NCBI GenBank assembly: GCA_964016885.1
Contig: OZ024743.1
Coordinates: 371,938,001 to 372,002,000, forward strand
Direction: 5' to 3'
Origin: Eledone cirrhosa
Taxonomy: Eukaryota
DNA: 64,000 bases
Shown here: one piece after another, positions 7,401-61,367 of the stretch
Layout: each line of letters opens with the position of its first letter
How positions within the stretch are numbered: the first letter of the stretch is position 1
The notes under the pieces: generated by a model
What the model was told of the DNA's origin: nothing
What the model saw: the letters and a program-made list of their open reading frames with translations, nothing else
Database searches by the model: none
Program-made: the position numbers and the translations under genes

Positions 7401-10400
7401 TCAATGGTAAAATTGGGGAGTTGGCTTATATTTGGAGTCACTATTTTGACGATTTTCATCAACTTCAAATTCTATGTAAATAAGGAACTAAAATATCTGG
7501 AGTCATTATTTTACAATGAAACACTGTTTTTCTACATTTCCTATATCACCAAGTTTTATTTATGGATTGCCTTCAGAACATTCCCACTAAGTTTTATTAT
7601 TTGAACTTTTTAATAGATAAATATCTTTTATGCATACATGTGTGCCAACTGTTTTTCTCTGTTGGGCTAGGGAGCCGGAAGTGAAGGGCCAGTGACTTCA
7701 CATTAGAAATATGGGCCAGGTATCTCTCTTAATTCATGTGTCACAGCCGAGTGTGGACGTTTTGTGATGACTGGTATGATTGAGTGTGTGGGTTTTGGTA
7801 TGTTCTCTGGCCAGATGCGAAATAGGTGAGTATCGTACAGGGAGATTCAGTCCAAACATGAATGGAGATACAAAGGTAGGTCCATTCACTTCTTATGACA
7901 ACCTATTTTGGCAGCATATTTTTTTTATTTACTTTCTCTGACTCTCAGAAGATATGACAACAAAGATAAGGATCAGTAGCGATACAATGAAGGCCTTCAG
8001 TGGCAAAGGAGACATTGCCTGGATTACGAAGATAAAATTGTTCGCTACATTACAAGGGATCAAAAATATGGCAGGCCTCATGGTGCTGTATCTGGAGAGT
8101 AACGCAATGGCATCGTACCTTGAAATAGATTAGGCAGACCAATTGAGCAGCACCTCAAGGAGGCATTAACTGAGGGATTGTATCCTGTTTTCGCCAAACT
8201 AGGAAAGGTGATGTGGATGGGAGAGCAGGTGGACGTGTTCACGGCGGAACTCTGGAGGTTGGCTACACTAGTAGAAAACCTAGAAAGGGTTGTGTGAATG
8301 GTTTCCCCAACGAAATTTTGGTGAGGTTCCACCAGCTGCTGGGCAACAACAAAATGTCCACGCGCGAACTGATCACATAGGCCTTCATAGTGAGATGAGG
8401 TGTTCAGCAAAATGTGGCGTTAGCAGTGAATAGCAATTAATGGACAATGAGGGGAGGAGAGCCCCATGAACACCCGGCTGCGGACATTCAAAGGCCAGTG
8501 CTTTAGGTGCCAGGGTATGAACATGGCAAGGGACTATAAGAGCCCATGTGGACACTGGCTGCACAACCACCTTAGTAACACCGGAGGTGGTTAAAAGGTG
8601 GAGCAGGATGAGTAGTGTAAGAGCAGTCGACAGCAGAGTGATAAGATGCAGAGGTAGCAGTGAGGTGTAGATGGCAGTACAAGGAATAAAAATAAGGCTG
8701 TGAGTGATTGTGATCGACCATGTGATGGATGGAATTGATGTGGTAATGGGCATTTCAGTGATTAAGGATGGGGTAAAGCGGGAACACCATGTACTGTGAG
8801 AGTGTAACAGGGGAACGGGGAGAGCCATGAAGAAAAATGTGCTGTTCATACCATTCAAGACGGATTTCCATACTGTATTTAATGGTCAGTGGTGGACAGT
8901 TAAGTGGTACTGCAAAGAAGAACCCTGACGTTGAACAGAATGAGCTGCTATCAACATACCCTGAAAGGGGATGCTTGAAACGAGTTTGAGGGAGAGGGGC
9001 AAAGATGGATAGAGGAGTGGTGTGTTGCCGTTAATGGCAGTAGTGCAACAAATGAAGAACAAGGTCAGGCCAGTGCTGGACTTTCGTGAACTGAACAAAC
9101 ACGTGTTGTGCCACACAGGCGACAGATGTCTGCAGGGAAACCTTGCGAGAGTGGAGACAAATGATAGTGACTTCCACGATTTTTAACTTAAAGTCAGTGT
9201 ATCTGCATCTACATGTAGCTGAAAAGCTGTGGCAGTATCAGTTGGTTAGGTGTAAGGGCTGGACATACTGCCTGACCAGCCTGGGGTTTGGGTTGAATTC
9301 AGCACCAAATATCATAAAGACAATCCTCAAGATCATTCTGGGGAAAGGTCACCAATTCCTACATTAGGAGATGCTGCAGAAATGTTAATAAAGCACTGCC
9401 TGGGAACTCTGGGAAAGCTGGCTGCTGAGTTCAGCCTGAAGTTGAATGTGGTCTTTGAACCCTTGGAGAAAAATAGGGTGGACATCCTAACCAGGGTGAA
9501 GAAAACCTGACTGAAAGTTTCAGAAGATGCAGGAAAGGGGATAACTGCAGTGACTTGGAATTGAGGAGGTTGCATATCATGCAGACATCTGTCGCCTGTG
9601 TGGCACAACACGTGTTTGTTCAGTTCACGAAAGTCCAGCACTGGCCTGACCTTGTTCTTCATTTGTTGCACTACTGCCAAGCGGTGCACAGGCTGAGTGG
9701 AAATGGGATCGTGGAGAGGCACGGTCAAGGCGATGGCAGAGAGAAGACACATTTCACTAATGGAGGCGGTGTTCTAGTACAACATATTGCCTTGGATGGG
9801 ACAAGATGTGGAGTTGGTGCCACTTAGGGTGATATATAAATATGAATGGCGACATTTGTGCATGTTATTACAATGACCTGTGGAAGAGCTAGAATACGTT
9901 TGTGCAAATGGGCAAAGAAGCCTGGGTCAAGTACCCAAATGTGTGTTGGAGATCTCAATGAGAATAGGGAACGGTAATGGGTTTAAATTCCTGAAACAAC
10001 GTGTCTGTGGATGAAATGATGCATCATGTTTTAGATGTCTGCAGAATTGTCCATTTGATGGACTTCGAAGAAGAGGAGAATGTAAGTGGACTTTGACTTG
10101 GAGTGATCTTTGAGATCAGGGGTTGTGTGGAGCTAGGGAGCCGGAAGTGGGTCTCTCACTTGATCCATGTGCCACAGCAGAGGGTGGACATTTGGTGATG
10201 AGTGTGTGAGTTTTGTTATGTTCTTTGGCCAGACGCGAAACATGAGCATCACGCAGGGAGATTCAGTCCAGACATGAGTGGAGAGGCAAAGGTAGGTCTC
10301 TTCAATTCTTATGACACTTACATAATTATACTTTTTCATTCAACTTTGTTTCATTCTATTTCGCTTGCTCTTGCCCTCTCTTTTTCTCAATGTGCCTCTC

Positions 10401-16400: not shown

Positions 16401-19400
16401 GCACTTGCATTTGAGTAGCCCAACGCCTTGGCCTCCACATGTGTAAGCCACGCAAATGCCGTTGTGGAGCTGTCGACAAGTTTGGCTTGCACCCACTATC
16501 ATGCTGCCAAAGTGCAGCCTGGTTCCCCCAACATACCGCTCTCAACGGCATAATGATTTTGTCATTTCTTACATGCTTTTCTCCAAAACATCCTGATTTA
16601 CACTGTGAGAATCATATTTGTTGTACTTTTCATATTTTTGGCAGTGCTTTTCTGGCTGGATGTTTTGGTGAAAAGCGTGTAAGAAATGACACTGGTGCAT
16701 TTAGCACTACTGGTACCCAAAAGAAAGAGGCTTGGAAATGTTACTATGAGAGATTGATGAATGTGGAGAATAAATGGGAAGAAGAGAAACTACCCCACCA
16801 ACCTACTCTCAACCATTGAAATTGATAGTTATAGGTTTGAAGAAGCAATCAAAGAGATGAAGAATGGTAAAGCTGCAAGACGTCATCAAGTTTAGATTGC
16901 AAATAATTTCTGTTACTACCAAACAACTTCCACCGTGTTTAGTCATGCCTACCAACACACAATTCTTAGCATTGCTAAGTCTGTGCCATTCAGAGATGGT
17001 TCCCTAAAACAATAACACTCTGTTTGTGTTTGCTGTAATCCTGTTATCGATTACCTAATCTTTGCAATCTACAATCATGATCTGATGATGTAACCAGGTC
17101 ATAGAAATATGTATTGTGTTTTTGCAGCATTAAAAAATTATTTTGAGTTTTGCTTTCTGTTGTTTTAAAATAAATATCTAACTCTGTTCTAGTACCAAGC
17201 ATGAGATACCACATCTACAATGGAGGATTTGCATAACATCGAGTGCTTTAACTCATTTCATCACGCTTGCTAAATGGAATGACCAGTTCTACCTATTGGT
17301 AAACCACACAACATAAATGGTTCCTGCGTTGTTGTTGTTTTTTACTTTTCTATATATATATATAAAGAGGAAAGCAAGAACGGGAGAAAATTTTCCTTTT
17401 AAAGACGATGTCTCACCCCAGGGCATCAATAACTCAAGGAAGTTATTGGGGAAAAAAGGGGAAAGAAATAGAGAAAACAATAGTAACAGAAGGGAAGAGG
17501 GAAGGAAAAAACAGTGAAAAAACAGGAAGCAAATGTTTGTGAGCAACTGGAAGAGAGAGAAAAATTAAAGTTGACATCAATTACTGAACAGACGAGAGAA
17601 AACACGTCTGACCTCCGCAAGAGTAAGTGAGAGAGAGCTTGAGGGGCAGGCGAGAGAAACAGGTGGTTAGCAGGGAGAAAGGGAGAGGAAGAGTTGATAG
17701 CAACAAAATAGATAGGGAGAAAGAGAGGATGTCACAGTGAAACTTGATACGAATTTAAGAATAAACAGGCTGTGTAGTTGCATGATAAGGTGTACTTATA
17801 AAAAGAGGAAAAAAAGAACAGGAGAAAATTTTCCTTCATCAGTTGTCTGCTGCGGGTCTTGGACATTAAAGACTATATATTTTTCAATGCATTAAAGACT
17901 ATATATTTTTCTTCTTCGCCCACTTATTTCCGAGAGGGTCGTGGGGGCAAAGTCCTTAAACACTCTCTTGTCAGAAGTAAATGTCTTCAACTTATTCGGC
18001 TGGATCCCCAAGGGTGACCAGTCTATCTCATGGAAGTTATCCAACCATCTTGGTTTCGCCCGTAAAATCTGTCTAGCGATTCTTTCCTGAGACATTCTAA
18101 CCACATGTCCATTGTATCGGAACTGTCATCTATATCTATATATACCAAACATTTAAAATAAACATTATAAACATTATTACCTGTGATTTTTGAGTTTAAA
18201 TCCCACCAAGGTTAGTTTTGCCTTTCATCTTTCCGGAGTCGATAAAATAAAGTACTAGTAACACACTGGGGTTAATTTAATCGGCTTTCCCCACCCCTTC
18301 AAATTGCTGGCCTTGTGCCAAAAGTAGAAACAATTATCGAACTGTTTTTAAAAGTGAACAAAACTTTTTTTGTTTGTCTTGGAAGAGTATGGGTGGTAAA
18401 ATTTGAGATGAATTTTATAAGTTGAACAGGTTATCTGCCCTTCGCTCAATTTTTTTTGGAAAGAATTATACATAGTCTCGATTTAATTAATATGAACTTT
18501 ACGAATTAGTTCTTTGAAATTATTTTGTCTAAAAAGTTTGAGGATAGGAATTTTTTTCTCTGGCCAAGCCCTTATCGACTTCTTCATGTATCACACGAAA
18601 TTAAGTGAAACCTGTAGTTCCCAAGCTTTTTAGTTTAATCATGGCATACTGAACAAGTGAAAATGTTATTCGAAAATCTATTCAACAGAGTTGATATTAG
18701 CATATCATAAAGTTGTAATCTTTGTGGGTATGGTGTGGCGTGCGGTGGCCGGAGGCGGGGGAGTGCTCGACCGGAAGGGTCTTTTGGCCGGAAGGATGCT
18801 CGACCGGAAGGGCCAGCAGAGGGCCTCTCTCTAGTGGTGACCCGCACACGGTGTGGACGCGAGTTTGGGCAGCTCCCGGTGTTAAGCAGTTGGACGCACG
18901 TGGAAGAGGAGTACCTGCAGTGGAATTTAGCGGCGCCTGTGAAAAGCAGTAAGTGAGATAGCTTTTTCTAACCACAAGCTATTTCGGCGACTGGAACAAA
19001 AAAAAAAAAAAAAAACACTTGCCGCAAGACAAATCAGAAGATGGCGACAAGACTACGGATGAACGAAGCTATCAGGACATTCACCGGGGAAGGTGATGTT
19101 GTCGCTTGGCTGCGGAAGGTTCGGCTGGTCGCAAGCTTGCAGAAGATAGAGGACGTGGCCGGCCTCATGGCATTGTACCTCGAGGGCGACACGTTGGTAC
19201 TCTTCCTTGAGTTGGACGAGCACAGCCAAAGAGATGTGCAGAAGATTGAGAGGCGTCTGATGGATGCATTCGCTAAGCTGGCGAGAATCAGGTGGAATGG
19301 TGAGCGCGTTGACATTTTCGCAGCGGAAATAAGGCGGTTGGCTATGTTGGCCGGTTACCAGGCGGAATGCAAACGCACGGTGCGGTTGGCGTTCATCAAT

Positions 19401-22400
19401 GGATTTCCGGACGACATAGCGGTGAAACTGCAGCAAGTCCCGGGTTATAAAGAGATGGAAATGCGTTCACTGGTGGAACAAGCCCGGATCATAGCGGAAG
19501 ATGCCAAAAGGAGTGTTGCGGCGATAGCAACTACGGAGGCTCAGGACACCTGGCAGCGAAATGGTGAAAGAGAGGCAACCTCGGCACGCGGCCGTCCGCA
19601 TGCGTTTAGGGGGCGCTGTTTTCGGTGCCAGGGCCCGCATATGGCTAGAGACTGTAGAGAGTCGAAGCCGGAAATAATTTGCTACCGGTGTAAGCGACCA
19701 GGCCACATCGCTACTAACTGCGACCAGGGAAACGATCCAAGGGGAACTACTGCACCGGTAGTTGCCCCTTACGAGTAGCGGCGCTGCCCGTGGTGGAAGT
19801 CTTCGTGAGGGGGAAGCCACAGCGAGCCCTCGTGGATACGGGCTGTACGACGACACTGATGACCGCGGGGGTGGCGCAGAGGTGGGGAGGGAAGAGCAGC
19901 GTAAGGGCAGTCGACGGCAGGAAAATTGAATGCCGAGGTCGCAGCGAGATGGAAATAGCGGTACGGGGAAGGAGGATAAGGCTTTCCGCCATCGTGGTAG
20001 ACAGTGTGGTGGATGGGATCAGCGTGGTTATGGGCATGGACGCGATTGGCCGTCTAGGGGGCGTCACGGTGAGCATTGTCGGTGTGTCGTTTGGCGCCGC
20101 TGCATCGGTATGCGCTGTGAGTGCACGTCATGAGAACCAGAAGGTCCACGAGGAGGAATACCCCGCTTACACTGTACAGGACAAAGACTTCAAGGCCGTG
20201 TTTGATGGGCAGCGATGGGTTGTTGAGTGGTACCTGAAGGGAGAACCACCAACACTGAAGACCAAAGTGGGCTGCTATCAACACACATTGAAGGGAAACG
20301 CTAGGAGCGAGTTCGAGCGAGAAGTAGAGAGATGGATCGAAGAGGGCATACTGCTGCCCTGGAAGGAGGAGGTGAAGTGCGGAGTATTGCCGTTGATGGC
20401 GGTGGTGCAACCCACGAAGAGCAAGGTGAGGCCGGTGCTGGACTATCGAGAGCTGAACGAGCACGTGTCATGCCACTCGGGTGGCGAGGTCACGGATGTC
20501 TGTGGGGAAACCCTGCGTGAGTGGAGACGCATGACGGGGGGTTCAGCGATCATGGATCTAAAGTCGGCTTACTTGCAGCTGCATATAGATGAGAAGCTCT
20601 GGCGGTATCAGCTGGTCAGGTATAAGGGTCGGACATATTGCCTGACCAGGCTCGGTTTCGGGCTGAGCTCCTCACCGAAGATCATGGCGGCGGTCCTCAA
20701 GACCGCTCTGGGGAGGGCCGACAAGATAAAGACGGCTACTAACTCCTATATTGACGACATCCTAGTGGACGAGTCGGTGGTGTCGATGGCGGAGGTCACG
20801 AGCCATTTGTGGAGGTATGGACTGACTGCGAAGCCATCAGAAGCATTGGAGGGAGGAGCCGCGCTGGGACTTAGGCTACGGCGAGACAAGACGGGCGTTT
20901 TGGTGTTCCAGAGGGGAAACGAAGTTCCGGAACTGGGCCCCAAGTATGAATAGGCGGGAGCTTTTCTCGGTGTGTGGAAAGCTGGTGGGTCACTACCCGA
21001 TCGCAGGATGGCTCCGGACGGCATGCAGCTATGTCAAGAGACGAGCGGGAGGGGTGACTTGGAGTGACAGAGTGGGAGAGAGGACGATGGCCATGATGCA
21101 GGAGATCATGGGGAGGATGAAGGCCGACGACCCAGTGCGGGGACGCTGGTACGTTCCCAAATCACAGAGCGGGACCATATGGTGCGATGCCAGCAGCATA
21201 GCGCTGGGTGTCACGTTGGAGATAGGTGTTGAGGTCGAGGATGCAGCCTGGCTTAGAAAGAAGGACGACTGCAGCCACATCAATGTGGCCGAGCTGGACG
21301 CGGTGTTGAGAGGGGTGAACCTCGCCCTGCGGTGGGGGCTGTGCACCATTGAGATACGCACCGACTTGGCTACTGTACTCGGATGGGTAAGATCAGTGCT
21401 CACCAGTGAGAAGAGAGTGCGAACGAGAGGCGCGGCGGAGATGCTGATAAAGCCCCGCCTGGGAACGTTAGGAGAGCTGGCCACCGAGTTCGACCTGAAG
21501 CTGAGCGTAGTGTTCGTGCCCTCAGAGAAATATAGGGCGGACATCTTAACTAGAGTGAAGAAAGCCTGGATGGAAGCGCCGGAGGAGTTAGAGGATGAGA
21601 TAGCTGCCGTGTGTCGGCTGACCGAGTTAGACCTGAAGGGGTTGCATGACATGCACCACATGGGGGTGGATAGGAGCCTGTTCCTAGCCAGGAGAATCAA
21701 CTCGGACGTTAGCAGACACAGAGTTCAGGGGGTGATTAGAAGCTGCGTCCGATGTCAGTCCATTGATCCCGCCCCGGGTGTACACGAAACGGGAAGCCTC
21801 CCGACTGGAAGCGATTAGCAGTGGATGTGACGCACTACCGGCAGGGAACGTACCTCTCGATGGTCGACTGTGGACCAGGCCGAATGGCGATATGGAGCGA
21901 GATGAGGACTGGAACGGCCGAGGAAATCGTGCGGACCTTGAGAGAGGTGTTCTTGGAGCGGGGCCCTGTGGACGAACTGCTCGGAGGCACTGAGGGAGAT
22001 GCTCGATGGATGGAAGGTGGACCGTTTCTTCAGAGCGGCGCACAGGCCGAGCGGGAATGGAATTGTGGAGCGACACCACCGGACGATCAAGGCAATGGCG
22101 GAGCGGGGCCATATCTCACCAATGGAGGCAGTGTTCTGGTACAATATGTCCCCTCGGGTTGGACAGGTCGAGGAATCGGTGCCACACACAGCAGTATTCA
22201 GATACGAGTGGCGGCACCCGTGCACGCCACCATAACGGCCAGTGGGGAGAGAGAGTGCATTCGTGCAGGTGGGCGAAGAAGTCTGGGTTAAGCCCCCAGA
22301 TGCACGTTGCACATCTCAATGGGGAAGGGGAACGGTGACGGCCGTAAATTCAAAGAACAATGTGTCCGTGGACGGAGTACCACATCATGTCCTGGATGCA

Positions 22401-25400
22401 AGAAGAATCACTGTGTCGACGGACTCCGAGGAAGAGGAAACCCAAGATGAGGTGGAAACCCAGAGCTCTGCCCCAATACTACGAAGATCGCAACGAAGTC
22501 GTAGACCACCGACCTGGACAGCAGACTTTCATATGCAGAGGGATGAGGAGGAAATTGATCCTTGAGATCAGGGGGGCGTGTGGGTATGGTGTGGCGTGCA
22601 GTGGCCGGAGGCGGGGGGAGTGCTCGACCGGAAGGGTGTGTGGCGTGCGGTGGCCGGAGGCGGGGGAGTGCTCGACCGGAAGGGTCTTTTGGCCGGAAGG
22701 ATGCTCGACCGGAAGGGCCAGCAGAGGGCCTCTCTCTAGTGGTGACCAGCACACGGTGTGGACGCGAGTTTGGGCAGCTCCCGGTGTTAAGCAGTTGGAC
22801 GCATGTGGAAGAGGAGTACCTGCAGTGGAATTTGGCGGCGCCTGTGAAAAGCGGTGAGTGAGATAGCTTTTTCTAACCACAATCTTAACTATAATAAAGG
22901 AAGGTCTGTGGGATTGCATCCAGAATATATTTTTTTTACTCCGTTTGTAAAATAAGTTGGATTACTTTGAATAAATAATGAATGAATATTACATAATTTA
23001 TGTGCTAAATTTTGTGGCTGTTGATTAAATATATTTTATAGCTTAATCTTTAAAATTATCAAATATCAACACTTCCGGTTAGCGGCCGTTATATTATAAC
23101 ACTTATAATCGCATATATTTCCGTCGCTAATTTTCTCCTAATGCAGTTTATATATAATGTCGTCTTTTTTTTAATATATCATGGATTACTGATTACAGAA
23201 GACAGTGTAACATAGGCTTTGTTAAATTTCTGTGTATATTGTCAATTACGATTTTATTTGATGTATCATATTTACATGCATATATATTTGTGTATAATAT
23301 CAATATACACACTACACATGACAGTAGAAAAATACCCGTTGGGTGGTTTTTCTGCTAGTATAGATAATAAAAATACAAAAAAATATATATATATTTTTTT
23401 GTATTTCCTTCTTTTGTATATAAAAAGAGCAAAGTTGTCAATGATAGTTGTATTACTTTTATCTATTTTTGTTGAAAGTCACTCGTAAATTTTCTTGTCC
23501 ATTCTTTGTTTTGTTATCACCTCACATGCAGCGGTTCTCCAAACTATTGCACAAATTGGCATTACATGTGCAATACCACCTTAATACATGATATTGCATA
23601 CCAACAAGGTGTCTGACATGCAGTTGTATATATATAATGGTAAATTTCATTTGCTATTGTATAGATTGGACTACCCTCCAGCAACATCATTAAAGAATAA
23701 TGTTTTTTCTCTGAAGATTCTAAGAACATATATATAGACCTGTTATATTGATATTATGCCTTAGATAAAACACTGTGTAAGGAGTAAATTTTGTTTTTAA
23801 ATGTATTGCCTTCCCCTCCATTTGAGTCTTGTTACTCTGGAGTTTCAAATGTAATAAACAGGTCAAACTCTACAGTAACATAATATAAATGAATATTAAA
23901 ACTTTTCTTTGGTATTGAGTACTCCTATGTGGTTGAGGGCTGAGAGAAAGGAGTACTCAATACCGAAGAAAAGTTTTAATATTCATTTATATTTAGGCTA
24001 AAAAGTGGGTCTATATATATATATATAGAGATGCTGAAGGCATCTGGGTCTGTAGGTCACACTATAACCACACGTATTGTTAACCAGGTAATACTAGAAG
24101 GTGTCATACCAAAAGATTGGTGCAGTAGCATCATTGTCAACTGCTACAAAGGTAAAGGTGATGCACTAGATAGAGGAAACTATAGAGGTATAAAGCTGAT
24201 GGACCAGGTCATGAAAGTACAGAAAGAGTTACAGCACAGTTGATTAGGGACTGGGTGAAACTAGATGAGATGTAATTTGGGTTTGTACCAGGAAGAGGCA
24301 CCACTTATGCCCTCTTCCTTGTGAGGCAGTTACAGGAAAAGTACCTAGCTAAAAGTAAGCCGCTCTACCTGGCATTCGTCGATCTCGAGAAAGCCTTTGA
24401 CAGAGTTCCTCGTGCTATAATCTGGTGGGCTCTTAGAAAACTAGGAGTAGATGAATGGCTTGTGAAAGCTGTACAAGCCATGTATAGGGAAGCAGTCAGC
24501 AAAGTTAGGATTAGCAATGAGTATAGCGAGGAATTTAGCGTACTGGTTGGTGTCCACCAGGGCTCTGTTCTTAGCCCTCGCCTGTTCATCATAGTCCTGC
24601 AGGCAATAACGGAGGAGTTTAAGACCGGATGCCCTCGCACTTATAGCTGAATCTATGGTAGAACTAGAGAAGATATTCCAAACTTGGAAGCAGGGACTAG
24701 AAAGAAAGGGTCTCAAAGTCAACCTGACAAAGACTAAGGTCCTTGTAAGTAGACGAGAAAACAGAACCCAGATCTCCTCAGGGAAATGGCCTTGCTCAGT
24801 ATGTAGGAAAGGTGTAGGTAGGAACTCCATTATCGGCCCCAAATGCAAACAATGGGTACACAAGAGATGTAGCGGGATCTCAGGAAGCTTAATTAAGAAT
24901 GTAGGCTTCACATGTAGCAGCTGTGCTGGGACAGCAAGCAGTAAACATCCACAGGAAACAAGTACCACCAAACTGTGGGAGGGCTCTGTAGAAACAGTAG
25001 ACAGCTTCTACTACCTAGGAGACCGAATTAGCAGCGGAGGTGGGTGTTCAGAAAGTACAATAACTGGGGTAAGAACGGGATGGAAGAAGTTCAGGGAGCT
25101 ACTGCCACTGCTAGCTGCAAAAGGTTTCCCCCTCAAAATGAAAGGCAGACTGTATGATGCGTGTATCCGAATAGCAATGTTACATGGTAGTGAGACCTGG
25201 GCGCTGAAGGTGGAAGACTTACGTAGATTAGAAAGAAACGAAGCCTGCATGCTCCGATGGATGTGTAATAGTAATATACACGAACGGCAAAGCATAAATG
25301 AATTGAGAGAGAGACTGCTGCATAAAAAGGTGCAGAGCACTAAAAGCCAATGGAAGCCGCGGAGTGGGGAGACCCAAGAAGACCTGGGATGAGGTGATAG

Positions 25401-28400
25401 GGGCCGACCTTACCGTCACGCAGTAAAACAGAGTACCCGACCTCCCATGGATACAAGCTGAAGCATATAGACAATATGCTCCCACACCCTCCCACTGTAA
25501 AGTGGACGTGTAGGCGCCACGAAAAAAAGCACCCAGCACTCACTGTAAATGAGGTTGGTGTTAGGAAGGGCATCCAGCTGTAGAAATCAAGCCAAAATCA
25601 TTTCCTGTATGAGCAAGGCATGGTCAGCCGACCAGACACTGCCCACAACAGGACAACCCGTCTAACCCATGCTAGCATGGAAGAACGGACGTAAAACGGT
25701 GATGATGATGATATATATATATATTTAAAATTTAAACAAGGTTCAATTAATACATCAAAGAATGAGTTTTACAATAGATTGGAAGCACTCAACGGTCAAA
25801 GGTTTCCTTTCTTTCCTCTTTCTTCAGTAGTTTAAAAAAAATTTTTTTAACTGTCATTTTGATGCCATGTATTTTTTAAGCTGTATTACATGCATCCTCT
25901 CTATTGTTTGTATTATATATTTTTCTTCTGTTGTCAATATTAGGGTATAAATATTGAGTTTTGTCATGCATTAATCACTACCATGACTGAATCTTAACCA
26001 TCTACTATGTCAGGGTATGTCATGCATCATCTCATTTTATCTGATGAGGACGTATTGTTGAACTTAACTCAGTACCTCTGAAATATGTATAATAAAATAT
26101 ACTTGATCACAAGAATATCTATTTTGTTCATATTTTGAATTAATATATATATATATATATATGTATGTGTATATATATATATAGAGGGCGCACCCGAACT
26201 ACACCGATATCCTGTAATTCAGCGCCGAAACATCGGTTCGGGATACATTTACAGCTGACGATGGAAACTCCTTTCTTCCTTTCTCCTCCTGTTCCGTCCT
26301 AACCACCATCCTAAACCTTGTTTTTAGTAACCACACAGCTCCTTTCGTTTCATAACTTTGTATATATATATATTACTACGGATATAACCTGTTTTTTTTT
26401 TTTACCCCTATATATATATTATTCAAAATATTCTCATAATCAAAATATATACTTTATTATATAATGTAAAATTGTATTAATTGAGTAATCAACGAACCAT
26501 ACTAATCTTTGGTTATATATATATATATATATAAGCAAAGGGATATTTAATTTGTTGGTAATTCAACAAATATATATATTTATAACAGATTCGAAGCACT
26601 CGACAGTTTTCTGGAGTATAATATCAATGATATTAATAAATGGAAACTTTATTTATTCTATTATATATATTTCAAATGTACCAAAGTTTTGGTACCCTTG
26701 AAATATATATAATAGAATAAATATGGTTTTATAAATATAGTTTCCATTTATTAATATCATTGATATATATATATATATGTTAGGTAATTCCGAAGGAAAA
26801 GAGCTATCTAATTATATATACTAGCAGAAAAAGTTTTCTGCTAGCATGTGTAGTGTATTGATATTATACGCAAGTATATATATATACATGTAGATATGAT
26901 ACGTCAAATAAAATAGTAATTGACAATATATAATACATAGAAATTGAACGAATACTGCATTACACTGTCTTATGTAATCAGTAACGTAATCCATGATACA
27001 TTAAAAAAGGCGATATTATATATAAACTACATTAGGAGAAAATTAGCGATGGCCAACCGGAAGTGTTGACATTTTAGAAATTTAAAGAAGTGAATCTTTA
27101 AATAAACAAAATATATTTAATGAACAGCCACGAAATTTAGTAGATAAATTATGTAATATTCATTCATTATTTATTCAAAGTAATCCAACTTATTTTACAA
27201 ACGGGATAAAAAAAACAAAACCGTATGCAATCCCGCAGACCTTCCTTTATTATAGTTTAGATATCTATGTGTGTGTATCTATATAATTGTTTCTACTTTT
27301 TGGCACAAGGCCAGCAAATAACTCAGTACATTACTGATACTTTATTTTATCGACCCCGTAAGGATGAAAGGCAAAGTTAACCTCGGCGGGATTTGAACTC
27401 AGATCATAAAGGGACATAACTATGCTAGAAACCATGGCGTCTGACCCTCTACCGATACTGCCAACATGTAAAGCAAATAAGATAAATAGAATTACCTTAA
27501 ATTACTTTTCAGTTCCGTCTGCAGTTTTTCCGTAAAGGCCAATTTAGATATTCTAATAATTTAGCATTCCATTCTGGGAGAAGTGCAGCTTTTAAGGGAA
27601 CCCACTCGTATGAAAAAAAATTCAAGTGGCTGCTACAAGTGATGTTTTCAAAAAGGAAAACCGTAACGTGATATGTCGTCCAACAGAAAGGGAGTAAGCG
27701 ATAGACAAATTGGGAAGTAATGGTATTGCTAGAAGCAGCAGTCTATTTTACCCTCGTTCATTCCACCATATAGGGAATATAGAACAAACAATAGGAAATA
27801 TTTATTTATACATACATATAAAGGTGTCCATCAAGAAACATTTTTGCTCAATGGAAGAATTAAATAATTAATTTGAGCATTATAAAATGAATAGTCTCTG
27901 GTCTCGAATACCCCCCCGCCACTACCACCACTCTTATTCCAACCCACCTGCTTATTAAATTTTGCGAATCTATCTCTGGCGAAATTTTATTTTAAGTTCT
28001 AACAATCCTACGACAATTAATTTTCTTTAGACATTAAAAAGCATTATATACGACAAAAAAAGAACATTACAAGAAATCTCATAAATAGGATATGTTGGGG
28101 TTTTAAAAAGTAAACTAAACGACGAATTCTGATTTTTAAATAAAATTCAAGGGAGACAACCTAGAAAAATGATCGATTTTCCAAACCCCACTTATTCCAC
28201 CTCCCCCTATTATTTGGGACCTGGGATCATTTCGGTTTAACTGCCAGCGGCAATTTCTGTTCGAATTATTTCATATTTACTGTAACGATACACATTTATA
28301 GGCTAATGAATGCCAGGAAAATCATTTTCGCTATAAATCAATAAATAAAAAGTTATTAGCAATTAAAATTTGAAAATTTTGGGTAATTTTAGCCAATCGT

Positions 28401-31400
28401 TAGGGTTAAGGTTAGAGTTAGTCTTAGGGTGTTGACAAATATATTGATGCCTGTTTTCATAGTAACACGCGGAACATGAGAACTTCTTTGTCTGCGAGAA
28501 AGCCACGCACAAACTGACAGCTTCCAAATCCTGTTTCCTGATTGGGTGAAAATGATGAAACTTTAAACCTCTATAACTTTTTTAAAACAACCAAAATTAA
28601 ATAGAAAACATGAGTGGAACAGCAACATCACAACTTACAATTAAGGACAAAATGCAAACACACACGCACATAGAACAAACAACCAACCAGTAACATGTAA
28701 ATAAACAAATAAATAAACGAATATAAACACACACAGACACCCGGATGTGGCGCATGCGCAGACTGAGCACACGACACACACACAGAAACAAGATGGCGTA
28801 GGACAGAACAAAGGAGAGGCACAAAAACAAAGAAAAGAATCCCAAGTCACTGAAGAGGTCACAGAATGTGTGACGAAAGAACTTTGACAATATATAAACA
28901 ACCATCTGGTTGTGGAATCAACCAACCAACCGGAAATTTATAATAAATTGAAGTGAAAGCAACTGGTGCGTGTGTTTCTTATTGGCAACATGACCCTCCC
29001 AAAGTATAACAATATCGTTTTCAACACACGTTTTCAGATAAAGAATCTTGCTAAACAAATTCAGAAACGAAATTTTTAAAAACATTTTTCTGGAAAAAAA
29101 TAAATAACTCCAGCAATGCAGCTTGAAAAACTACATTAAATTAAAAAATGTTCGATAAACTTTAATGCTGGTAGCCAAACCGAAAATATCCGGGCCCTGT
29201 GAGTATGTAAAGCAAATAAGATAAAAGAATCTAAACTATAATAAAGTAAGTAGCGCGGGACTGTGTACGGTTTATAATTTTTTTTAATCCCATTAGTAAA
29301 ATAAATTGGTTACTTTCAATAAATAATTGTTTCTACTTTAGGCACAAGGCCAGCAATTACCCAGTGCATTACTGGTACTTTATTTTATCGACCCCGTAAG
29401 GATGAAAGGCAAAGTTAACCTCGGCCGGATTTGAACTCAGATCGTAAAGGGACGTAACTCTATACGTCAAAGCATGGCGTCCGACCCTCTCCCAATACTG
29501 CCAATCCAGAATGAATATTACATAATTTATCTACTAAATTTCGTGACTGTTCATTAAATATATTTTATTATTTATTTAAAGATTCACTTCTTTAGAATTT
29601 TCAAATGTCAACACTTCCGGTGGCGATCGCTTAAACAAACATTAATTTTCTCCTAATGCAGTTTATATATAATATCGTCTTTTTTTAATGTATCATGGAT
29701 TACGTTACTGATTTCATAAGACAGTGTAACACAGTCTTCGTTCAATTTCTGTTTATATTGTCAATTACGATTTTATTTGATGTATCATATCTACATGTAT
29801 ATATACTTGCGTATAATATCAATATACACACTCCACATGCTAGCAGAAAACGATCCGGAGGGTGGTTTTTCTGCTAGTGACCTTAAATTACTTTCGTTTC
29901 TGACTGCAGTACCACAGTAAAAATCAGTTTAAATATTCTAATATTTTAGCATTTCTGTTCTATACTCCCTATACGGTCGAGTGAATAAGGCTAAAACGGA
30001 CTGCTGCTTCTAGCAGTTACTTGCTATATTCTTGACACGTGTGAAGAGGCAAAGGAAGGTTATTTTGCTTCCTACGATAAGCTAATTTCAGCACCATCCC
30101 CTGGTCATTATTTACTTTTTCCGACCTCGTAGACGATATCGCGACAAAAATAGGAATAGGTAAAGATGCAATCAAAGACTTCAGCGGGGAGGGGGATGCT
30201 ATCACCTTGATTAGAAAGATAAAATTGGTCGACACACTGCAAAGCATTGAAAATGTGGGTGGCGTCATGGCACTATATTGACGGCGACGTATTAGCATTA
30301 TACCTCAAAATGGACCAATTGAACGTGGAGAAGATAGAGCAACGCCTTAAGGAAGCATTCACAAAGGGACATTATGCTGCTTTCGCCAAGCTAGGCAAAG
30401 TGAAATGGACGGGAGAGGAGGTGGGTGTGTTCGCATCTGAAATCTGGAGCTTGGCTATATTAGCCAATTTCACAAAAAAGAATCTCAAAAGGGCTGTGTG
30501 GATGGCGTTCGAGAATGGTTCCCATGCAACAACAAAATAGCCATGTGCGAGCAAATCACACACGCGTTGAACGGAATGTTGCAGTGTTAGCAACGATGGA
30601 AGCCCATAGCAGTTGACGTTTGATGAATAACAAGGGGAGAGAGCCCCCATGAATGCTTGGCTGCAAGCATTGGGAGGCCAATGCTTCAGTTGTCACGTCA
30701 TGGCAAGGGACTGCAGGGATCTGTAGCCTGAAATAATTTGCTTACCAATGTAAACAGGTAGGCCATATTGGCAACACTTGTGACCAGAGAAATGGTCAAA
30801 GGGGAGTCACTGTGCAGGTAGCTATCCACGGAAACTTGTAGAAGCACTCTTGCAGTCGCTGCCCATAGTGGAGGTTCTGGCAGGGGGAAAGCTGTCACGA
30901 GCCATTGTGGACATGAGCTGTACAACAAAATTAGTGACCCTGGAGGTGTTTAAAAAGTGGAGCAGGACGAGTAGTGTAAGGGCAGTTTATGGCCGAGTGA
31001 TTAGTAGAAGTGAGGTGGAGATAGCAGTATGAGGAATAAAAATAAGGCTGTGGATGATCGTGATCGACCACGAGGTGGGTAGAATTGATGTAGTAATGGG
31101 GATGGGTGTGATTGGCTGCTTAGGAAGCGTTATAGTGAGTGAGAATGGGGGTAACGTTTGGTAGTGTGGGAACTCCATGTGCCATGAGTATGCAACAGGG
31201 CAACGGAGATCTGTGAAGAAAAATGTGCTGTTCATACCATACAAGACAAGGATTTCCGGGCTGTGTTTGATGGTCAGTGGTGGATAGTTGAGTGGTACTG
31301 GAAAGGAGAGCTCCTGATGCTGAAGAACAGAGTGAGCTGCTGTCAACATACCCTGAAAGGGGATGCTAGAAGTGAGTTTGAGGGAGAGGTGCAAAGGAGG

Positions 31401-49400: not shown

Positions 49401-52400
49401 GCAGCTGAGGAAATCTATTTCATGTGTTCTTTGTGCTTACTTCTGTGTATCTGCCACATCTAAAGTCTATCTTTTCCATTAGAATACCTACAATCCCACT
49501 ACATCTCTTGTGCATCCATACTTTACATAGTGTGCACCTTATGGAATTTCTGCCCACCCCTTTCTGACATATTGAGCACGGGCACTTTCCTGCTGAAGGC
49601 GACAGATGAGATCTGTGGCTGGAGCAGACCTATAGGCAGGAGGAGAGTAACGTGGTGGTGGAACAGTAAGGTGGAGGTGACAATCAAGGCCAAAAAGCAG
49701 GCTTGGAAAGTATGGCTGGATGGGTGAAGTAGAGAACACTATCAAGTTGCCAGGAGAGAAGCTAGGAGACAAGTGTACTTTACAAGAAGGGAAGTAGAGG
49801 ATAGAAAGTTCTACAACGCGAGGACCAAAAACGTGAGGTGTTCAGGATTACAAGTCAAGGAAAACCGTGATATTGTTGGGGAGAAGTGTGTCCATAATGA
49901 TGATGGTGTACTTGCCCTCATTGATACTGATAAGAAGGTAGCTTGGAAGTGTCACTATGAGAGACTACTAAATGAGGAGAATAAATGGGAAAAAGATAGT
50001 CTGCCCCAAATCGATTCAATAGAGAGACCAGCGGTGCAAGTTAAAGGTAGTATAATAAGTAAGGCAATCAAAGATATGAAGACAGGCAAGGCAGCTGGGC
50101 CTTCAGAGATAGTTGCTGAGATGTTGAAAGCATCTGGAATGGTGAGACACACTATGATCACCTGGATAGTAAACCAAATAATACAGAATGGAGTCATACC
50201 AAATGACTGGTGTAGCAGCATCATCATTAATTGCTACAAGGGGAAACTATAGAGGCATTAAGTTAGTTGACCAGGTCAGGAAGGTCACAGAAAGAGTTAT
50301 AACACAACTAATCAGAGAGCGAATTGATCTAGATGAAATGCAGTTTGGATTTGTGTCAGGTAAAAGTACCACAGACGCTCTTTTCCTTGTACGACAACTA
50401 CAGGAGAAGTACCTAGCTAAAAGTAAACCCCTCTACTTAGCCTTTGTTGACTTGGAGAAAGCCTTTGACAGAGTCCCCTGCTCCATTGTCTGGTGGGCCC
50501 TTAGAAAACTAGGTGTAGATGAATGGCTTGTGAGAGCTATACAAGCCATGTATAAAGAAACAGTCAGCAAGGTTAGAATTAACAATGAATATAGTGAAGA
50601 ATTTAGTGTAAAAGTTGGTGTTCATCAAGGCTGTGTCCTTATCCCCTCCTATTTATTATTGCCCTTCAGGCTATAACAGAGGAGTTTAAGACTGGCTGCC
50701 TATGGGAACTTCTATATGCAGATGATCTAACGCTCTTAGCTGAATCTATGGCTGAACTAGAGAAGAAATTCCAAACATGGAAGCATGGCCTAGAATCAAA
50801 AGGCCTTAAAGTTAACTTGTCTAAGACTAAAGTTCTAGTATGTAGAAAGGAAAATAGGGCACAGGTGACCTCTAGGAAATGGCCTTGCTCAGTGTGTAAG
50901 AAAGGAATAGGTAGAAATTCCATTTTATGTCCCAAATACAAACTATGGGTTCATAAAAGATATAGTGGGATCACAGGTAAGTAGATTTTCTATGTGGCCG
51001 ATGCTCTGGTGCAATAAGTAGCAGGTGTCCACAGCATACTAGCTCCTTCTATTGCCCAGATGGTTCTATAGAAATAGTGGACACTTTCCGTTACCTGGGT
51101 GACAAAATCAGCAGTGGTGGAGGGTGCTCTGAAAGTACAGTAGCTAGAGTCAGAATGGGATGGAAAAATCGGGAAACCCAGGTTAAAAGTAACTTAAAAA
51201 ATCACATGTAGTTTAAATGAATGCTTGATGTCATATAATTACCTGTTACCATGTCCAGAAAAAATTTTCGCAAAATTAATTTGAGGATAATTTGTTTCAA
51301 AGTTGGACCTATTGAAAGCATATCTTCAGTTACAAGTGGAAGAGGAATGTTCAAAGTTATTAGCGATCAACACACATAAAGGATTGTATAAATCTAATCG
51401 CCTCACTTTTGGTATAAAGGTAGCATCAGTTATTTTTCAAATTAAGGACACTATGCTCGCAGGTTCGGATTTTGCAATAGCTTACTTCATGATATACTCA
51501 TAAAAAGTGAATCTCGAGGTCAACATGCGGAGCATGTTAAAAAGGTTTTTGAAAAAACTTAAAGAATATGGTTTTACGCTCAGCGATGAAAAGTATGAAT
51601 TTTTTATGTCAAGTATAAAATATCTGGGGCAAATTATCGATGAAAACGGACGAAGCCCAGACCCATCAAGGTTGAGTGCAATAAAAAATATGCCTACCCC
51701 AACAACATTAAAACGTTTTTAGGGCTCGCAAATTACTACCAGATATATATACCAAATATGCATGATTTGAGAGAACCTCTAAATAACTTGTTAAAAAAAG
51801 ATGTTAAATGGAACTGGTTTGAGAAGTGCCAAAAAGCTTTTGAGGAAATTAAAAGCATCTTAATTTCGGATTAGTCATTATCACATTTTGACCCGAAATT
51901 AGAAATTGTGGTGGCATCAAATGTGAGTGAAAGTGATTTTACACAAATATGAAGATGGAAGTTTAGAAGCTGTAGCTCATGCTTCGCAGTCCTTATTGTC
52001 AGCTGAAAAAAATTGCAGTCAGATAGAGAAGGAAGCATTAGCCATCATATTTGTGGTAAGAATATTTTATAAATTCATGCATGTAAGAAAATTCCACTTA
52101 CAACAGACCACCGCCCTTTATTGTTGATCTATGGTTAAAAGAAGGGTATTCCCACTCATACAGCCAACAGATTGCAGCTCTGGGGGATGATCTTACTGAA
52201 TTACAACTTCAAGATGGAGTATTTGCCATCTAAAAAATTGGGACATGCGGATTGTTTGTCAAGATTAATATCAATATACAGTGAATCACTAGAAGACACG
52301 CTGATCACGGTTTATGTGCTGAAAATAAAATTAAAAAATATTCTATGCAACACTGCGAGAATTGTCTGTCTCATTGGAGGAAATAAAACTTAAGGCAGAA

Positions 52401-54321: not shown

Positions 54322-54705
54322 CTGAAAAGAAATTTATATGAAAAATCAAACCTAAGAATTTTTGTAGATAGCACATAGTGGGAATTGTCATTCCTGGGAA
54401 ATGCTAACTTGGTTTACTAACATAAAAAATACAGATGCAGGTTAACCTTTTCATTATCATATTGCTAATGAATTACTTTCCTTATGATTTTCAAATTATT
54501 TAAAAAATAATCAAGAACTTGGAAAGATTTAGTAAAATACAATTCTGATGGTTTCTTCCCTTGCACATGTCACCAATAGAATTCTTTTCTGGCATTTTGC
54601 TTTCTTGAAAATTAGAATTGCAAAAATTCAAAAGCGACACCAATCGTCACTTCTCTCCTTGCCCGCTTTTCCCTGCTTGTTTACCTTTTACATATATATA
54701 TATAT

Positions 54706-57700
54706 GTGAAGCTTCAATTCAGAGACAGGAAGCACATGCACACCCCTGCAAAAATCGACCCTTCCCCACAAATGTTGACAAAAAAAACAAAAATCCGAGT
54801 TTGTGCCATTAATGTAAGCACAATGAAAGGAAGAGCAGGAGAAATCGTAGAGATGCTAGAGCAAAAGGAAATTGATGTATGCTGTGTACAAGAGGCTAGA
54901 TGGAGAGGAGAGTCTGGTAGAGTCCTTGTAGGAAAAAGTCAGTGTTACAAATTTTTCTGGGTGGGAAATGACGATGGCATGGGTGGTGTAGGTATTCTAC
55001 TAGCTGACAAGTGGGTAGATAGAGTAATCTCAGTGAACAGAGTAAATGCAAGAATCATTAAACTCAGACTAGTCCTGAATAAAACAATTACCACAATAAT
55101 ATCAGCTGACGCACCCCAATCGGGGTTGCCAGACGAACTTAAGGATGGGTTTTACGAGTCCCTAATGCACACTACTGCTCTAACAAATGACAATGACTTC
55201 CTAATCATTGCAGGAGATTTTAACGGACACGTAGGTAAACACTGTGACAGCTTCAATAGAGTCCATGGAGGCCATGGGGTTGGCACAAGAAACGAAGAAG
55301 GATTCAGGCTTCTAGAATTCTGCGACGCCAATGACATGTCGATATATAACACAAACTTCAAAAAACCCGACAACCATCTGATCACCTATAGATCAGGGGA
55401 GCATTCTAGTCAAATAGATTTTATCCTCATCAGAGGACGTGACAGATGGACGGTCGTAAACACAAAAGCCTTCCCCAGTGAGGAATATACCTCCCAACAT
55501 AGCTTAGTTGTCAGCGACATCACGGTCAGAACTAGATGAACCTGGAAACAGAAGCCAACCTGGAGAAGAAAGATCTGGAAGCTGAAAGACCCCTCAGCCA
55601 GTAACAGATTTAAAGATATTTTTCTCAACGCCTACGACAGTAAAGAAGAACAGATAGAGACATTCAATGTAGAAGAGCACTGGGAGTTCCTAAAAAATAA
55701 CTTACTTGAGGCAACAGATGAGATCTGTGGCTGGAGTAAGACCTCAAGCAGGAGGAGAGTGACTTGGTGGTGGAACAATAAGGTAGATGAGGCAGCCAAG
55801 AGACAGGCATGGAAAGAATGGAAGAACGGGGGGAAGCAGGGTACATTACATAGAGACCAAGAGGGAAGCTAGGCGACAAGTATACTTAGCTAGGAGGGAA
55901 GCAGAGGATAGAAAATTCAAGCATGTTTTACAACATGAGGACCACAAACAGGAGGTGTTCAAGATTGCAAGGCAGTGTGTCAGAGAGAATTGTGATGTCA
56001 TTGGAGAGAAGTGTATCCGGAAAGATAAAGGTGAGCTTGCTCTCACAAGTGCTGAGAAGAAAGATGCGTGGAAGAGCCATTATGATAGATTACTAAATGA
56101 GGAGAATGCATGGGAAGAAGAGACCCTACCCCAAGTAGACCCTATAGAGGGGCCGACAGTACACGTCAGCAGCAGCATAGTAAGTAAGGCAATCAAAGAT
56201 ATGAAGATGGGGAAGGCAACCGGTCCATCGGATATAGCTACCGAGATGCTGAAGGCATCTGGGTCGGTAGGTCACACTATAACCACACGTATTGTTAACC
56301 AGGTAATACTAGAAGGTGTCATACCAAAAGATTGGTGCAGTAGCATCATTGTCAACTGCTACAAAGGTAAAGGTGATGCTCTAGATAGAGGAAACTATAG
56401 AGGTATAAAGCTAATGGATCAGATCATGAAAGTACAGAAAGAGTTATAGCACAGTTGATTAGGGATCGGGTGAAACTAGATGAGTTGCAATTTGGGTCTG
56501 TACCAGGAAGAGGCACCACTGATGCTCTCTTCCTTGTGAGGCAGTTACAGGAAAAGTACCTAGCTAAAAGTAAGCCGCTCTACCAGGCATTCGTTGATCT
56601 CGAGAAAGCCTTTGACAGAGTTCCCCGTGCTATAATCTGGTGGGCTCTTCGAAAACTAGGAGTAGATGAATGGCTTGTGAAAGCTGTACAAGCCATGTAT
56701 AGGGGAGCAGTCAGCAAAGTTAGGATTAGCAATGACTATAGCGAGGAATTTAGCATACAGATCGGTGTCCACCAGGGCTCTGTTCTTAGCCCTCTCCTGT
56801 TCATCATAGTCCTGCAGGCAATAACGGAGGAGTTTAAGACCGGATGCCCAGGGAAACTCCTGTATGCAGATGACCTCGCACTTATAGCTGAATCTATGGT
56901 AGAACTAGAGAAGATATTCCAAACTTGGAAGCAGGGACTAGAAAGAAAGGGTCTCAAAGTCAACCTAACAAAGACTAAGGTCCTTGTAAGTAGACTAGAA
57001 AACAGAACCCAGATCCCCTCAGGGAAATGGCCTTGCTCAGTATGTAGGAACGGTGTAGGTAGGAACTCCATTATCGGCCCCAAATGCAAACAATGGGTAG
57101 ACAAGAGATGTAGCGGGATCTCAGGAAGCTTAATTAAGAATGTAGGCTTCACATGTAGCAGCTGTGCTGGGACAGAAAGCAGCAAACAGCCACAGGAAAC
57201 AAGTACCTCCAATCTCTGGGAGGGCCCTGTAGAAACAGTAGACAGCTTCTGCTACCTAGGTGACCGAATTAGCAGTGGAGGTGGGTGTTTGGAAAGTACA
57301 ATAACCAGGGTAAGAACGGGATAGAAGAAGTTCAGGGAGCTACTGCCACTGCTAGCTGCAAAAGGCTCTTCATTCAAAATGAAAGGCAGACTGTATGATG
57401 CGTGTATACGAACAGCAATGTTACATGGTAGTGAGACCAGGGCGCTGACTGTGGAAGACTTGCGTAGATTAGAAAGAAATGAAGCTTGCATGCTCCGATG
57501 GATGTGTAATAGTAATATATGCGAATGGCAAAGCATAAATGAATTCAGAGAGAGACTGAGCATAAGAGGAATCGAATGCTGTGTGCAGGAGAGGCGGTTG
57601 CGTTGGTATGGACATGTGATGCGTATGAAGGATGACAGTTGCATAAAAAAGGTGCAGAGCACTAGAAGTCAATGGAAACCGCGGAGTGGGGCGACCCAAG

Positions 57701-58083
57701 AAAACCTGGGATGAGGTGATAAAAGCCGACCCTACCCAATTACACCTCTCAAAGGTGATGACACACGACCATGACCTCTGGCGTCACGCAGTAATACAGA
57801 ATACCCGACCCCCCATGTGTACAAGCTGAAGCTGAAGCATATAGACAATATGCCCCCACACCCTCCCACTGCAAAATGGACGTGTAGGCGCCACGGAAAA
57901 AAGCACCCAGCACTCACTGTAAATAAGGTTGGTGTTAGGAAGGGCATCCAGCTGTAGAAATCGAGTCAGAATCAGTTCCTGTATGAGCAAGACAAGGCCA
58001 GCCGACCGGACACTGCCCACAACAGGACAACCCGTCTAACCCATGCTAGCGTGCAAGAATGGACGTAAAACGGTGATGATGAT
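54706..58083 (+). mobile_element. Near full-length RTE-clade LINE (APE endonuclease + RT + PHD-like finger), disrupted
   Basis: APE motifs CCVQEARW, GDFNGHVG, SQIDFIL; RT motifs [25 protein letters not shown]; (GAT)n tail; (TA)n on both sides. Confidence 0.92.
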
Positions 58084-58978
58084 ATATATATATACATCAT
58101 CATCATTTTACGTCCACTTTTCCCTGCTTGTTTACCTTTTACATACACATATATATATATATATATATCCATGCTAGCATGGAAGAACGGACGTAAAACG
58201 GTGATGATGACATATATATACATCTGTTTCTACTTTTGGCACAAGGCCAGCAATTATCCCAGTGTATTACTGGTACTTTATTTTATCGATCTCGTAAGGA
58301 TGAAAGGCAAAGTCAACCTCGGCGGGATTTGAACTCAGATCGTAAAGGGACGTAACTATGCTGGAAAGCATGGCGTCCGACCCTCTCAGCCTCAATTCGC
58401 ATGCCAACACAAGAGCAAGAATGAAGTGTTCATTCTACTGACATGGCTATAAAAATGAGGCTTGTCTGCAAAATTGCAAATGAATTCAACTATGAGTGTA
58501 AGATCATCCGTGTGCAGACGTTCCATGGTCTTAAACTCCTCTGTTATAGCCTGCAAAATGATAATAAACAAGAGTTGGGCCTGGTGGACGCCAACTTGTA
58601 TGCTAAATTCCTCGCTATAGTCATTGTTATGGAGGCACATGGCTTAGTGGTTACAGCGTTGGCCTTGCAATCGAAAGGTTAAATTCTCAGACCGGTTGAT
58701 GTGTTGTTTCCTTGACCAAGACACTTTATTTCACATTGCTCCAGTTTACTCAGCTGTAGAAATGAGATGATAGGGACTGGGGTCCTTATCATTCCACTTC
58801 AAAGTGGTCGTGGAGGCGCCACGGAAAAAAAAGCACCCAGCACTCACTGTAAATGAGGTTGGTGTTAGGAAGGGCATCCAGCTGTAGAAATCAAGCCAGA
58901 ATCAGTTCCCGTCCCACCCTTGCAAGCAGGGAAAAGCAGAGGTAAAATGAAATGATGATGATGATGATGATATATATA

Positions 58979-60672: not shown

Positions 60673-61367
60673 TACATGCATATATATATAAATATTATGT
60701 TGGTAACATCCAGCCCATACTGTACAGTTGTCATATAGGTGTCACGACAAAAAAAGCCCAGTCCAGACAGTAAAGTGGTCGTGTAAAAGAGATGGCAAAA
60801 AGCACCCAGTGCACACTGTAAATGCGGTTGGTGTTAGGAAGGGCATCCAGCTGTAGAAAACCATCCGGAAACAGTCCTATATGAGCAAGACACGGTCACC
60901 CGACCCAACATGCCTCTAAATGGGACAAACTCGTCTAACCCATGCTAGCGTGGAAGAGAGACATTAAACAATGATGATGATATATATATATAGAGAGAGA
61001 GAGTAATAATAAAAAATGTGAAGACTAAAATCCGAAGAGGGCTCAATAAGGATTATATATATAAATATATATAAAAACCGTCCAGATTGATTTTTTTTTT
61101 AGTTTCAGAATATCCTGTTAAAGGTGAAAGCAGCGATTCTTTGCTTAAACTTTAATCTGTTATTTAATATATATATATATATTATATAGTTAGAACTATA
61201 TTATCAATTTTCAAAAGAGAGTAGAGAATTAAACTTATAGAATGTAATTGCCACCTTTTCAGAGAAATGAATAACTTGATGCTTTATATGATGTATACAA
61301 AAGTTTGAAGAACAGATATTAGCATTCTAATGAAACAGGATTGATTTTCTATTAATACTTTTGTCAA

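Follow-up and report, generated by a model that had tools for sequence, protein, structure and literature searches.

Which RNA starts the minus strand of the LTR retrotransposon found in this stretch of the Eledone cirrhosa genome (the window, 64,000 nucleotides)? Canonical primer-binding sites (PBSs) pair with the 3' end of a tRNA, copia and Ty5 use a cleaved half of the initiator tRNA-Met, and Tf1 uses a self-primer of 11 nt that is cut by RNase H. A first-pass annotation of the locus had pointed to another kind of partner, namely a 5' fragment of tRNA-Phe. This reading is supported by the sequence comparisons reported here, and we put the probability that minus-strand synthesis is primed by a 12-nt 5' fragment of tRNA-Phe at roughly 80%; the priming step itself and a cut after nt 12 are what we infer from the pairing.

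The features of the element are collected in Table 1. Because ATCTT lies on both flanks (18718–18722 and 22882–22886) and the 3' LTR ends at 22881, the end of the 5' LTR is fixed at 18976. The two LTRs are 97.95% identical across 244 nt, and the pol domains follow the order protease, reverse transcriptase (RT), DUF7047, RNase H and integrase. Pol of the window copy is disrupted within the piece at 20826–21818 and again downstream. The stretch directly 5' of the polypurine tract (window 22555–22578) reads CTTGAGATCA or a near variant and is common to families of the host genome (L322, L333) and the distant element L078. No tRNA genes were found in the 64-kb window, and no Rfam families matched at 18600–19200. 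Decayed copies of a LINE that we take to be RTE-like, with endonuclease, RT and a cysteine-rich finger, occupy 24000–25700, 49800–51000 and 54600–60900.

Table 1. Positions of the element, its parts and the related primer sites within the window.
Feature	Position	Strand	Remarks
Whole LTR retrotransposon	18723–22881	+	TG...CA LTRs, 5-bp target site duplication (TSD), 4.16 kb
5' TSD, ATCTT	18718–18722	+	identical 5-mer at 22882–22886
5' LTR	18723–18976	+	254 nt, TG...CA
Predicted splice donor GTAAGT in U5	18949–18954	+	consensus match only
Predicted U5/primer-site hairpin	18954–18986	+	arms 18954–18964 and 18976–18986; z −2.96; particular to families of the host genome
Primer-binding site	18977–18988	+	exact complement of tRNA-Phe(GAA) nt 1–12
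gag ORF	19041–19778	+	CCHC zinc knuckle
pol piece 1	19718–20953	+	−1 frame; aspartyl protease and RT; premature frame end in window copy
pol piece 2	20826–21818	+	DUF7047 (RT thumb position), RNase H, integrase start
Polypurine tract	22570–22578	+	adjoins 3' LTR
3' LTR	22579–22881	+	TG...CA; short internal duplication close to its start
3' TSD, ATCTT	22882–22886	+	
Decayed primer site of an older relative	7901–7912	+	2 changes; right after LTR end 7900
Decayed primer site of a second older relative	30080–30092	+	1 insertion and 1 change; putative LTR boundary

The 5' LTR closes with ...AACCACA at 18976, and the next 12 nt (18977–18988) are AGCTATTTCGGC, which at LTR+1 to +12 is the exact complement of nt 1–12 of the host tRNA-Phe(GAA) (12/12). 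The site therefore lies where the first-pass annotation had placed it, directly 3' of the LTR end that the TSD fixes, and it contains no TGG. The tRNA start that the annotation had expected is likewise present in the host: tRNA-Phe(GAA) genes begin GCCGAAATAGCTCAG, a pattern with 247 matches in the genome versus 0 for the control, and ARAGORN called tRNA-Phe(GAA) in 9 of the 10 loci fetched. When the whole tRNA was compared with the whole 4.16-kb element, the longest Watson–Crick complement was that of tRNA nt 1–12 at 18977, and the next-best, unrelated match measured 8 nt. Canonical 3'-CCA priming was rejected, as no complement of the tRNA-Phe 3' end (CCA-type) occurs anywhere in the element and no TGG was found within +1 to +8 in 26 junctions. 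The host also carries a tandem array of ~1.26-kb units, each with tRNA-Phe and tRNA-Asn (G000:C4:117.36–117.54 Mb; L005–L010, L384); among its genes is a variant of tRNA-Phe in which a change at nt 4 is compensated. A further array (L383, G000:C2:99.03 Mb) consists of ~92-nt tRNA-like genes with anticodon TTA according to ARAGORN, possibly intron-containing tRNA genes.

The same observations bear on whether the site acts in priming. It might, like the second site of a bipartite PBS, bind tRNA-Phe or its 5' fragments for packaging, dimerisation or regulation while something else primes: tRNA-Phe priming is read here from sequence, and in Drosophila gypsy the primer tRNA is described as bound at two sites, one of them dispensable for cDNA synthesis (PMC1635307). 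Yet neither a TGG-type site close to the LTR end nor a tRNA-Phe 3'-end match in the whole element was found, and pairing starts precisely at LTR+1, the place required of a primer 3'-OH. We consider this account improbable, if the least improbable of the alternatives to priming by the tRNA-Phe 5' end.

The site recurs beyond the window element. The degenerate versions that had been noted in two older relatives read as described: ACCTATTTTGGC at 7901–7912 follows an LTR end at 7900 whose 78% identical partner LTR ends at 10316, and AGCTAATTTCAGC stands at 30080–30092, with no partner LTR found within 7 kb. Within the family, the motif was kept as well, the exact 12-mer being present in 26 of 30 host-genome copies and a version with 1–2 changes in the other 4 (two copies were read by eye). 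Genome-wide, CAAGCTATTTCGGC (CA plus the 12-mer) gave 527 matches versus 1 for the reversed pattern; gag lies within 1.5 kb in 27 of the first 30 of these, and the LTR ends upstream of the matches fall into several LTR families. Among 14 stretches fetched, the LTR repeat stops exactly at the motif in L321, L323, L324, L328, L329, L332 and L333, the remaining stretches being without a usable second LTR end. Exact 5-bp TSDs flank L324, L328 and L332, and TSDs with one mismatch each flank L329 and the distant L078.

Several further observations concern these host copies. Five of them (L389–L393, G000:C25) are without the last ~31 bases of the 5' LTR and retain the primer site, a loss that apparently arose by short-homology deletion. 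The start of another abundant host tRNA (GCCYGCATAGCT), taken as a primer site, gave 2 matches, with gag beside neither, and was rejected. Primer-templated inheritance of the site was also rejected: 2 separate insertions match the nt-4 T variant of tRNA-Phe, too few to mean anything, and changes at the variant position otherwise comprised 0 other transversions and 13 CpG transitions. A leader intron is predicted: a GTAAGT donor lies ~28 nt ahead of the LTR end, and immediately 5' of the gag ATG is a stretch rich in pyrimidines that resembles an acceptor. This pattern is present at window 18949–19040 and at host loci L322, L326, L328, L329 and L331. Removal of this predicted intron would take the primer site out of the spliced mRNA.

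Protein homologs of the element are plentiful, those named coming from Argonauta, Petrolisthes and Oratosquilla. A profile search returned 1,331 clusters (50% identity) at E<=1e-30, not necessarily all of them members, and no relative was found in viral contigs. In a quick tree of 52 of 67 candidate rows, with partial matches <230 aa dropped and no outgroup, the own-genome copies cluster with the Argonauta protein. A metagenome scan yielded 52 loci, mostly at 36–52% identity. In these loci gag, rather than the motif, served as the anchor; 29 of the 52 include both gag start and junction, and the site is there in all 29. Among the others, 5 contigs end inside or just before gag and 18 loci are without a gag match. 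The strict form ACA/AGCTAT-NN-CGGC (the slash marking the LTR end) accounts for 26 of the 29 sites, and 3 are variants (L042, L053, L057). Most metagenome contigs contain a collapsed LTR, and the LTR end is taken there from the ACA rather than from a second LTR. In L078, which is far from the host's clade, both LTRs are present and bear out the boundary.

Merging near-duplicate loci left 27 distinct metagenome junctions, which together with 6 own-genome families make 33. Across these, A-C-A precedes the site (the C in 31), and positions +1 to +6 and +9 to +12 are near-invariant, which is partly imposed by the selecting pattern. Position +13 is free (A 18, G 6, C 6, T 3), so that conservation extends no further than +12, which faces tRNA nt 1. 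Mean pairwise identity over 26 divergent junctions is 0.88 for the 12-mer and 0.29 both upstream and downstream; this set was chosen by a loose motif, so that the 0.88 holds partly by construction, a circularity of which the gag-anchored result (29/29) is free.

Positions +7 and +8, which face tRNA nt 6 and 5, read TT in 13 of the 33 junctions, CG in 10, CA in 8 and CC in 2. Site variation is thus mostly confined to the bases facing tRNA nt 5–6, where tRNA-Phe itself varies. A scan for eukaryote-type tRNA-Phe with nt 4–6 left free returned 76 loci, 28 of them without an archaeal title; these 28 are probably eukaryotic contaminants, since many adjoin eukaryote-type tRNAs. Their top three starts complement TT (11 loci, 9 records), CG (8 loci, 2 records) and CA (4 loci, 4 records), and no tRNA-Phe start fitting the CC form (e.g. 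element L074) appeared in the scan. In the host genome, the one host on which host-to-site matching rests, tRNA-Phe fits TT; the C-form pattern gave 17 matches (control 38), with 0 of the CG, CA and CC types, and the one match of the 17 that adjoins gag is a single change from TT. The covariation is weakened because CG and CA can interconvert by CpG decay and can both pair with one tRNA via G-U. L059 and L067 have near-identical junctions and different forms, and the forms are interleaved across the quick tree, by which co-evolution is not proven. At L042, whose junction lies ~50 nt 5' of gag, the site reads AGCTATCCGGGC and complements a 5' end of the tRNA-Lys3 type, judged by the human tRNA-Lys3 sequence given in PMC1797187. 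L042 may represent a switch of primer tRNA with unchanged 12-nt geometry.

This pattern of conservation can be set against the idea that the site is a signal recognised by protein in DNA or RNA (an extension of the integrase attachment site, a splice or a packaging signal) and resembles a tRNA by chance. ACA/AGCT is nearly constant across the junction (the C of ACA in 31/33), as such a signal might be, and in host-genome families the site would fall inside the predicted leader intron. The chance that all 12 bases match one among a few dozen tRNA starts is, however, ~1e-6 by our estimate, and conservation stops opposite tRNA nt 1 and relaxes just where tRNA-Phe itself varies. We judge chance likeness to be most unlikely.

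A second reading of the junction is self-priming of the Tf1 type, in which the transcript would supply its own primer, its 5' end or an arm of U5 annealing to the site and then being cleaved, and the likeness to the tRNA would be incidental. Self-priming sites adjoin the LTR as well (PMC4600332), and a U5/site helix of 9–11 bp with G-U pairs can be drawn in 4 of the 6 own-genome families, with differing U5 arms; in these 4 the predicted hairpin would occlude the site, which counts against priming by the tRNA fragment. A complement of 10–11 bp between LTR and PBS, again with G-U, is found in only 3 of the 6 families. Tf1-type elements are recognised by at least 10 LTR bases complementary to the PBS, whereas the longest site/LTR helix is 5–9 bp, much as in shuffles (means 6.0–8.1), in all 25 metagenome junctions that extend far enough upstream. 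The self duplexes come to −7 to −14 kcal/mol versus −19 to −24 for a perfect 12-mer. Furthermore, a self-primer would neither keep the site constant while the LTRs fall to 0.29 identity nor track the variants of tRNA-Phe. The own-genome hairpin is best read as a local secondary feature, and self-priming appears very unlikely, though a shade less so than a protein signal.

The primer could also be the natural 3' end of another, unannotated host RNA that shares the 12 bases, which would require no cleavage step. When the complement was sought with a T-run behind it, a test of Pol III-type ends only, 7 matches emerged (control 2); 5 of these are element copies with a U5 deletion, and none has an Rfam match. 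Such an RNA would also need to vary from host to host as tRNA-Phe nt 5–6 do, and we rate this the least probable of the explanations considered. Better pairing with the element's own transcript or with the 3' end of another RNA had been named at the outset as what would speak against tRNA-Phe; no consistent LTR self-primer emerged, and the one narrow RNA-gene search was negative. Of the three grounds for refutation set out in the first-pass annotation (this one, a host tRNA-Phe with another 5' sequence, and a motif not conserved in intact copies), none was borne out.

Priming from the tRNA-Phe 5' end thus remains the preferred reading, and the geometry of the pairing suggests how it might proceed. 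A primer 3'-OH has to lie at the LTR end. Pairing spans tRNA nt 1–12 and stops at both ends, with nt 13–15 mismatching the ACA of the LTR; because of this mismatch, neither an intact tRNA nor a longer fragment left untrimmed could prime. We propose that the site invades the acceptor stem and the 5' strand of the D-stem, probably assisted by the Gag zinc knuckle, that the tRNA gains a 3'-OH at U12, and that RT extends this end into U5. The shortest class of 5' tRNA fragments listed in PMC9933334 is tRF-5a, of 14–16 nt. As 12 nt is shorter than this, either a longer fragment would be trimmed or the duplex would be cut by the element RNase H. We favour the latter, at a little under even odds: the element RNase H would cut the 12-bp RNA duplex in a trans version of Tf1 self-priming. 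Trimming of a host D-loop fragment to its paired part is a serious competitor, with odds somewhat further below even, and another host nuclease might also make the cut. The catalytic residues of both enzymes (RNase H D-E-D-D, RT D-DD) are invariant in 31 of 31 homologs.

Published primers are listed as three types: the 3' end of a whole tRNA, a tRNA half produced by a cut within the anticodon stem, and a self-primer (PMC6317226). The site described here is real and lineage-wide, and there is good support, as far as sequence can indicate, for its being a primer site for the 5' end of tRNA-Phe, which would fit none of the three; a 12-nt 5'-terminal tRNA fragment would, if true, be a fourth primer type. 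No description of the site or lineage was found in the mostly open-access literature searched, including PMC4139406, PMC5006619, PMC12471100, PMC7472051, PMC6934838 and PMC6238403. A term search of PMC8556966 returned neither PBS nor tRNA, and the motif is absent from the supplement files searched of mollusc and annelid LTR surveys. That the site has already been noted somewhere beyond these sources is a minor but real chance. The PBS pipelines outlined in PMC6317226 and PMC13524379 compare with tRNA 3' ends, one adding half-tRNA and self-primer checks, and these elements would therefore score as lacking a PBS. The 12-mer after ACA could serve as a simple marker for a large lineage. If the proposal holds, there should exist either a tRNA fragment of very small size that has so far gone unrecognised or an RNase H that cuts a host tRNA; the proposal also bears on the possible origin of self-priming from tRNA priming. 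The boldest form of the proposal is tentative, and we would wager against it rather than for it: that an unnamed deep-branching DUF7047-RT lineage (hundreds of families in marine eukaryotes) clips tRNA-Phe nt 1–12 with its own RNase H as a fourth priming mode, one that would unite tRNA priming with cleavage of the Tf1 type, the site tracking each host's tRNA-Phe.

As to what this lineage is, the Atlas yields unnamed clusters only. A structure predicted with a pLDDT of 93.8 comprises RT, thumb (DUF7047) and RNase H without a tether; the structures that match it best, those of caulimovirus and retroviral RTs, are 11–20% identical to it. Alignment of the RT–RNase H region with the host genome's own gypsy RTs covers only 52 aa at 31% identity. 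In 6 full-length homologs, gypsy RNase H Pfam domains had no match, DUF7047 was present, and no chromodomain was matched. BEL/Pao elements are marked by Peptidase_A17 and BEL-type gag domains; neither had a Pfam match in the same 6 homologs, and this assignment was rejected. DIRS and other tyrosine-recombinase elements were rejected on the rve integrase and the TSDs, and no tyrosine recombinase turned up when the host genome was searched for one. The motifs RPVLD and HINxAEL (P0025 residues 490–880 and homologs) nonetheless give RT and RNase H what we take to be a DIRS-like look, although the element has direct LTRs, a protease and a DDE integrase; a chimeric origin or a deep branching position of the lineage is possible. 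A sister clade of ~1,400 aa proteins (P0217, P0219, P0222, P0229, P0231) shares the DUF7047 RT–RNase H and has a more gypsy-like integrase. Retroviridae, Loki and Odin are described as having a tether domain between RT and RNase H (PMC12440569) and were rejected, since in the model the thumb runs directly into RNase H. Troyka, like the present elements, is a deep-branching aquatic LTR lineage outside typical gypsy; its CG...CG termini and 3-bp TSDs, described in the same source (PMC12440569), differ from the TG...CA termini and 5-bp TSDs here, and membership was rejected.

Among known systems, the lineage shares its overall plan with Metaviridae (Ty3/gypsy), with direct LTRs, a polypurine tract, gag-pol in the order PR-RT-RH-IN and, in the model, no tether between RT and RNase H. 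However, the Metaviridae PBS complements a host tRNA 3' end (PMC7879559), and that of the present lineage does not. Half-tRNA priming (copia, Ty5, Osser, Bryco, Gymco-II, Bianca) shares with the proposed mode a 5' host-tRNA fragment, a new 3' end and the lack of TGG. Its primers, according to PMC6317226, are cut in the anticodon stem of tRNA Met or Ile and are confined in plants to Ty1/copia; unlike these Hemivirus-type copia elements, whose PBS pairs with the anticodon-stem region, the lineage described here would use tRNA-Phe nt 1–12 with a cut in the D-stem, and its pol order is PR-RT-RH-IN rather than PR-IN-RT-RH. Tf1 and the sushi chromoviruses resemble it in a short primer from the extreme 5' end of an RNA and in a site adjoining the LTR. 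In Tf1, RNase H cleavage of an RNA duplex reportedly yields the primer; here, the partner would be a host tRNA acting in trans, not the element's own transcript.
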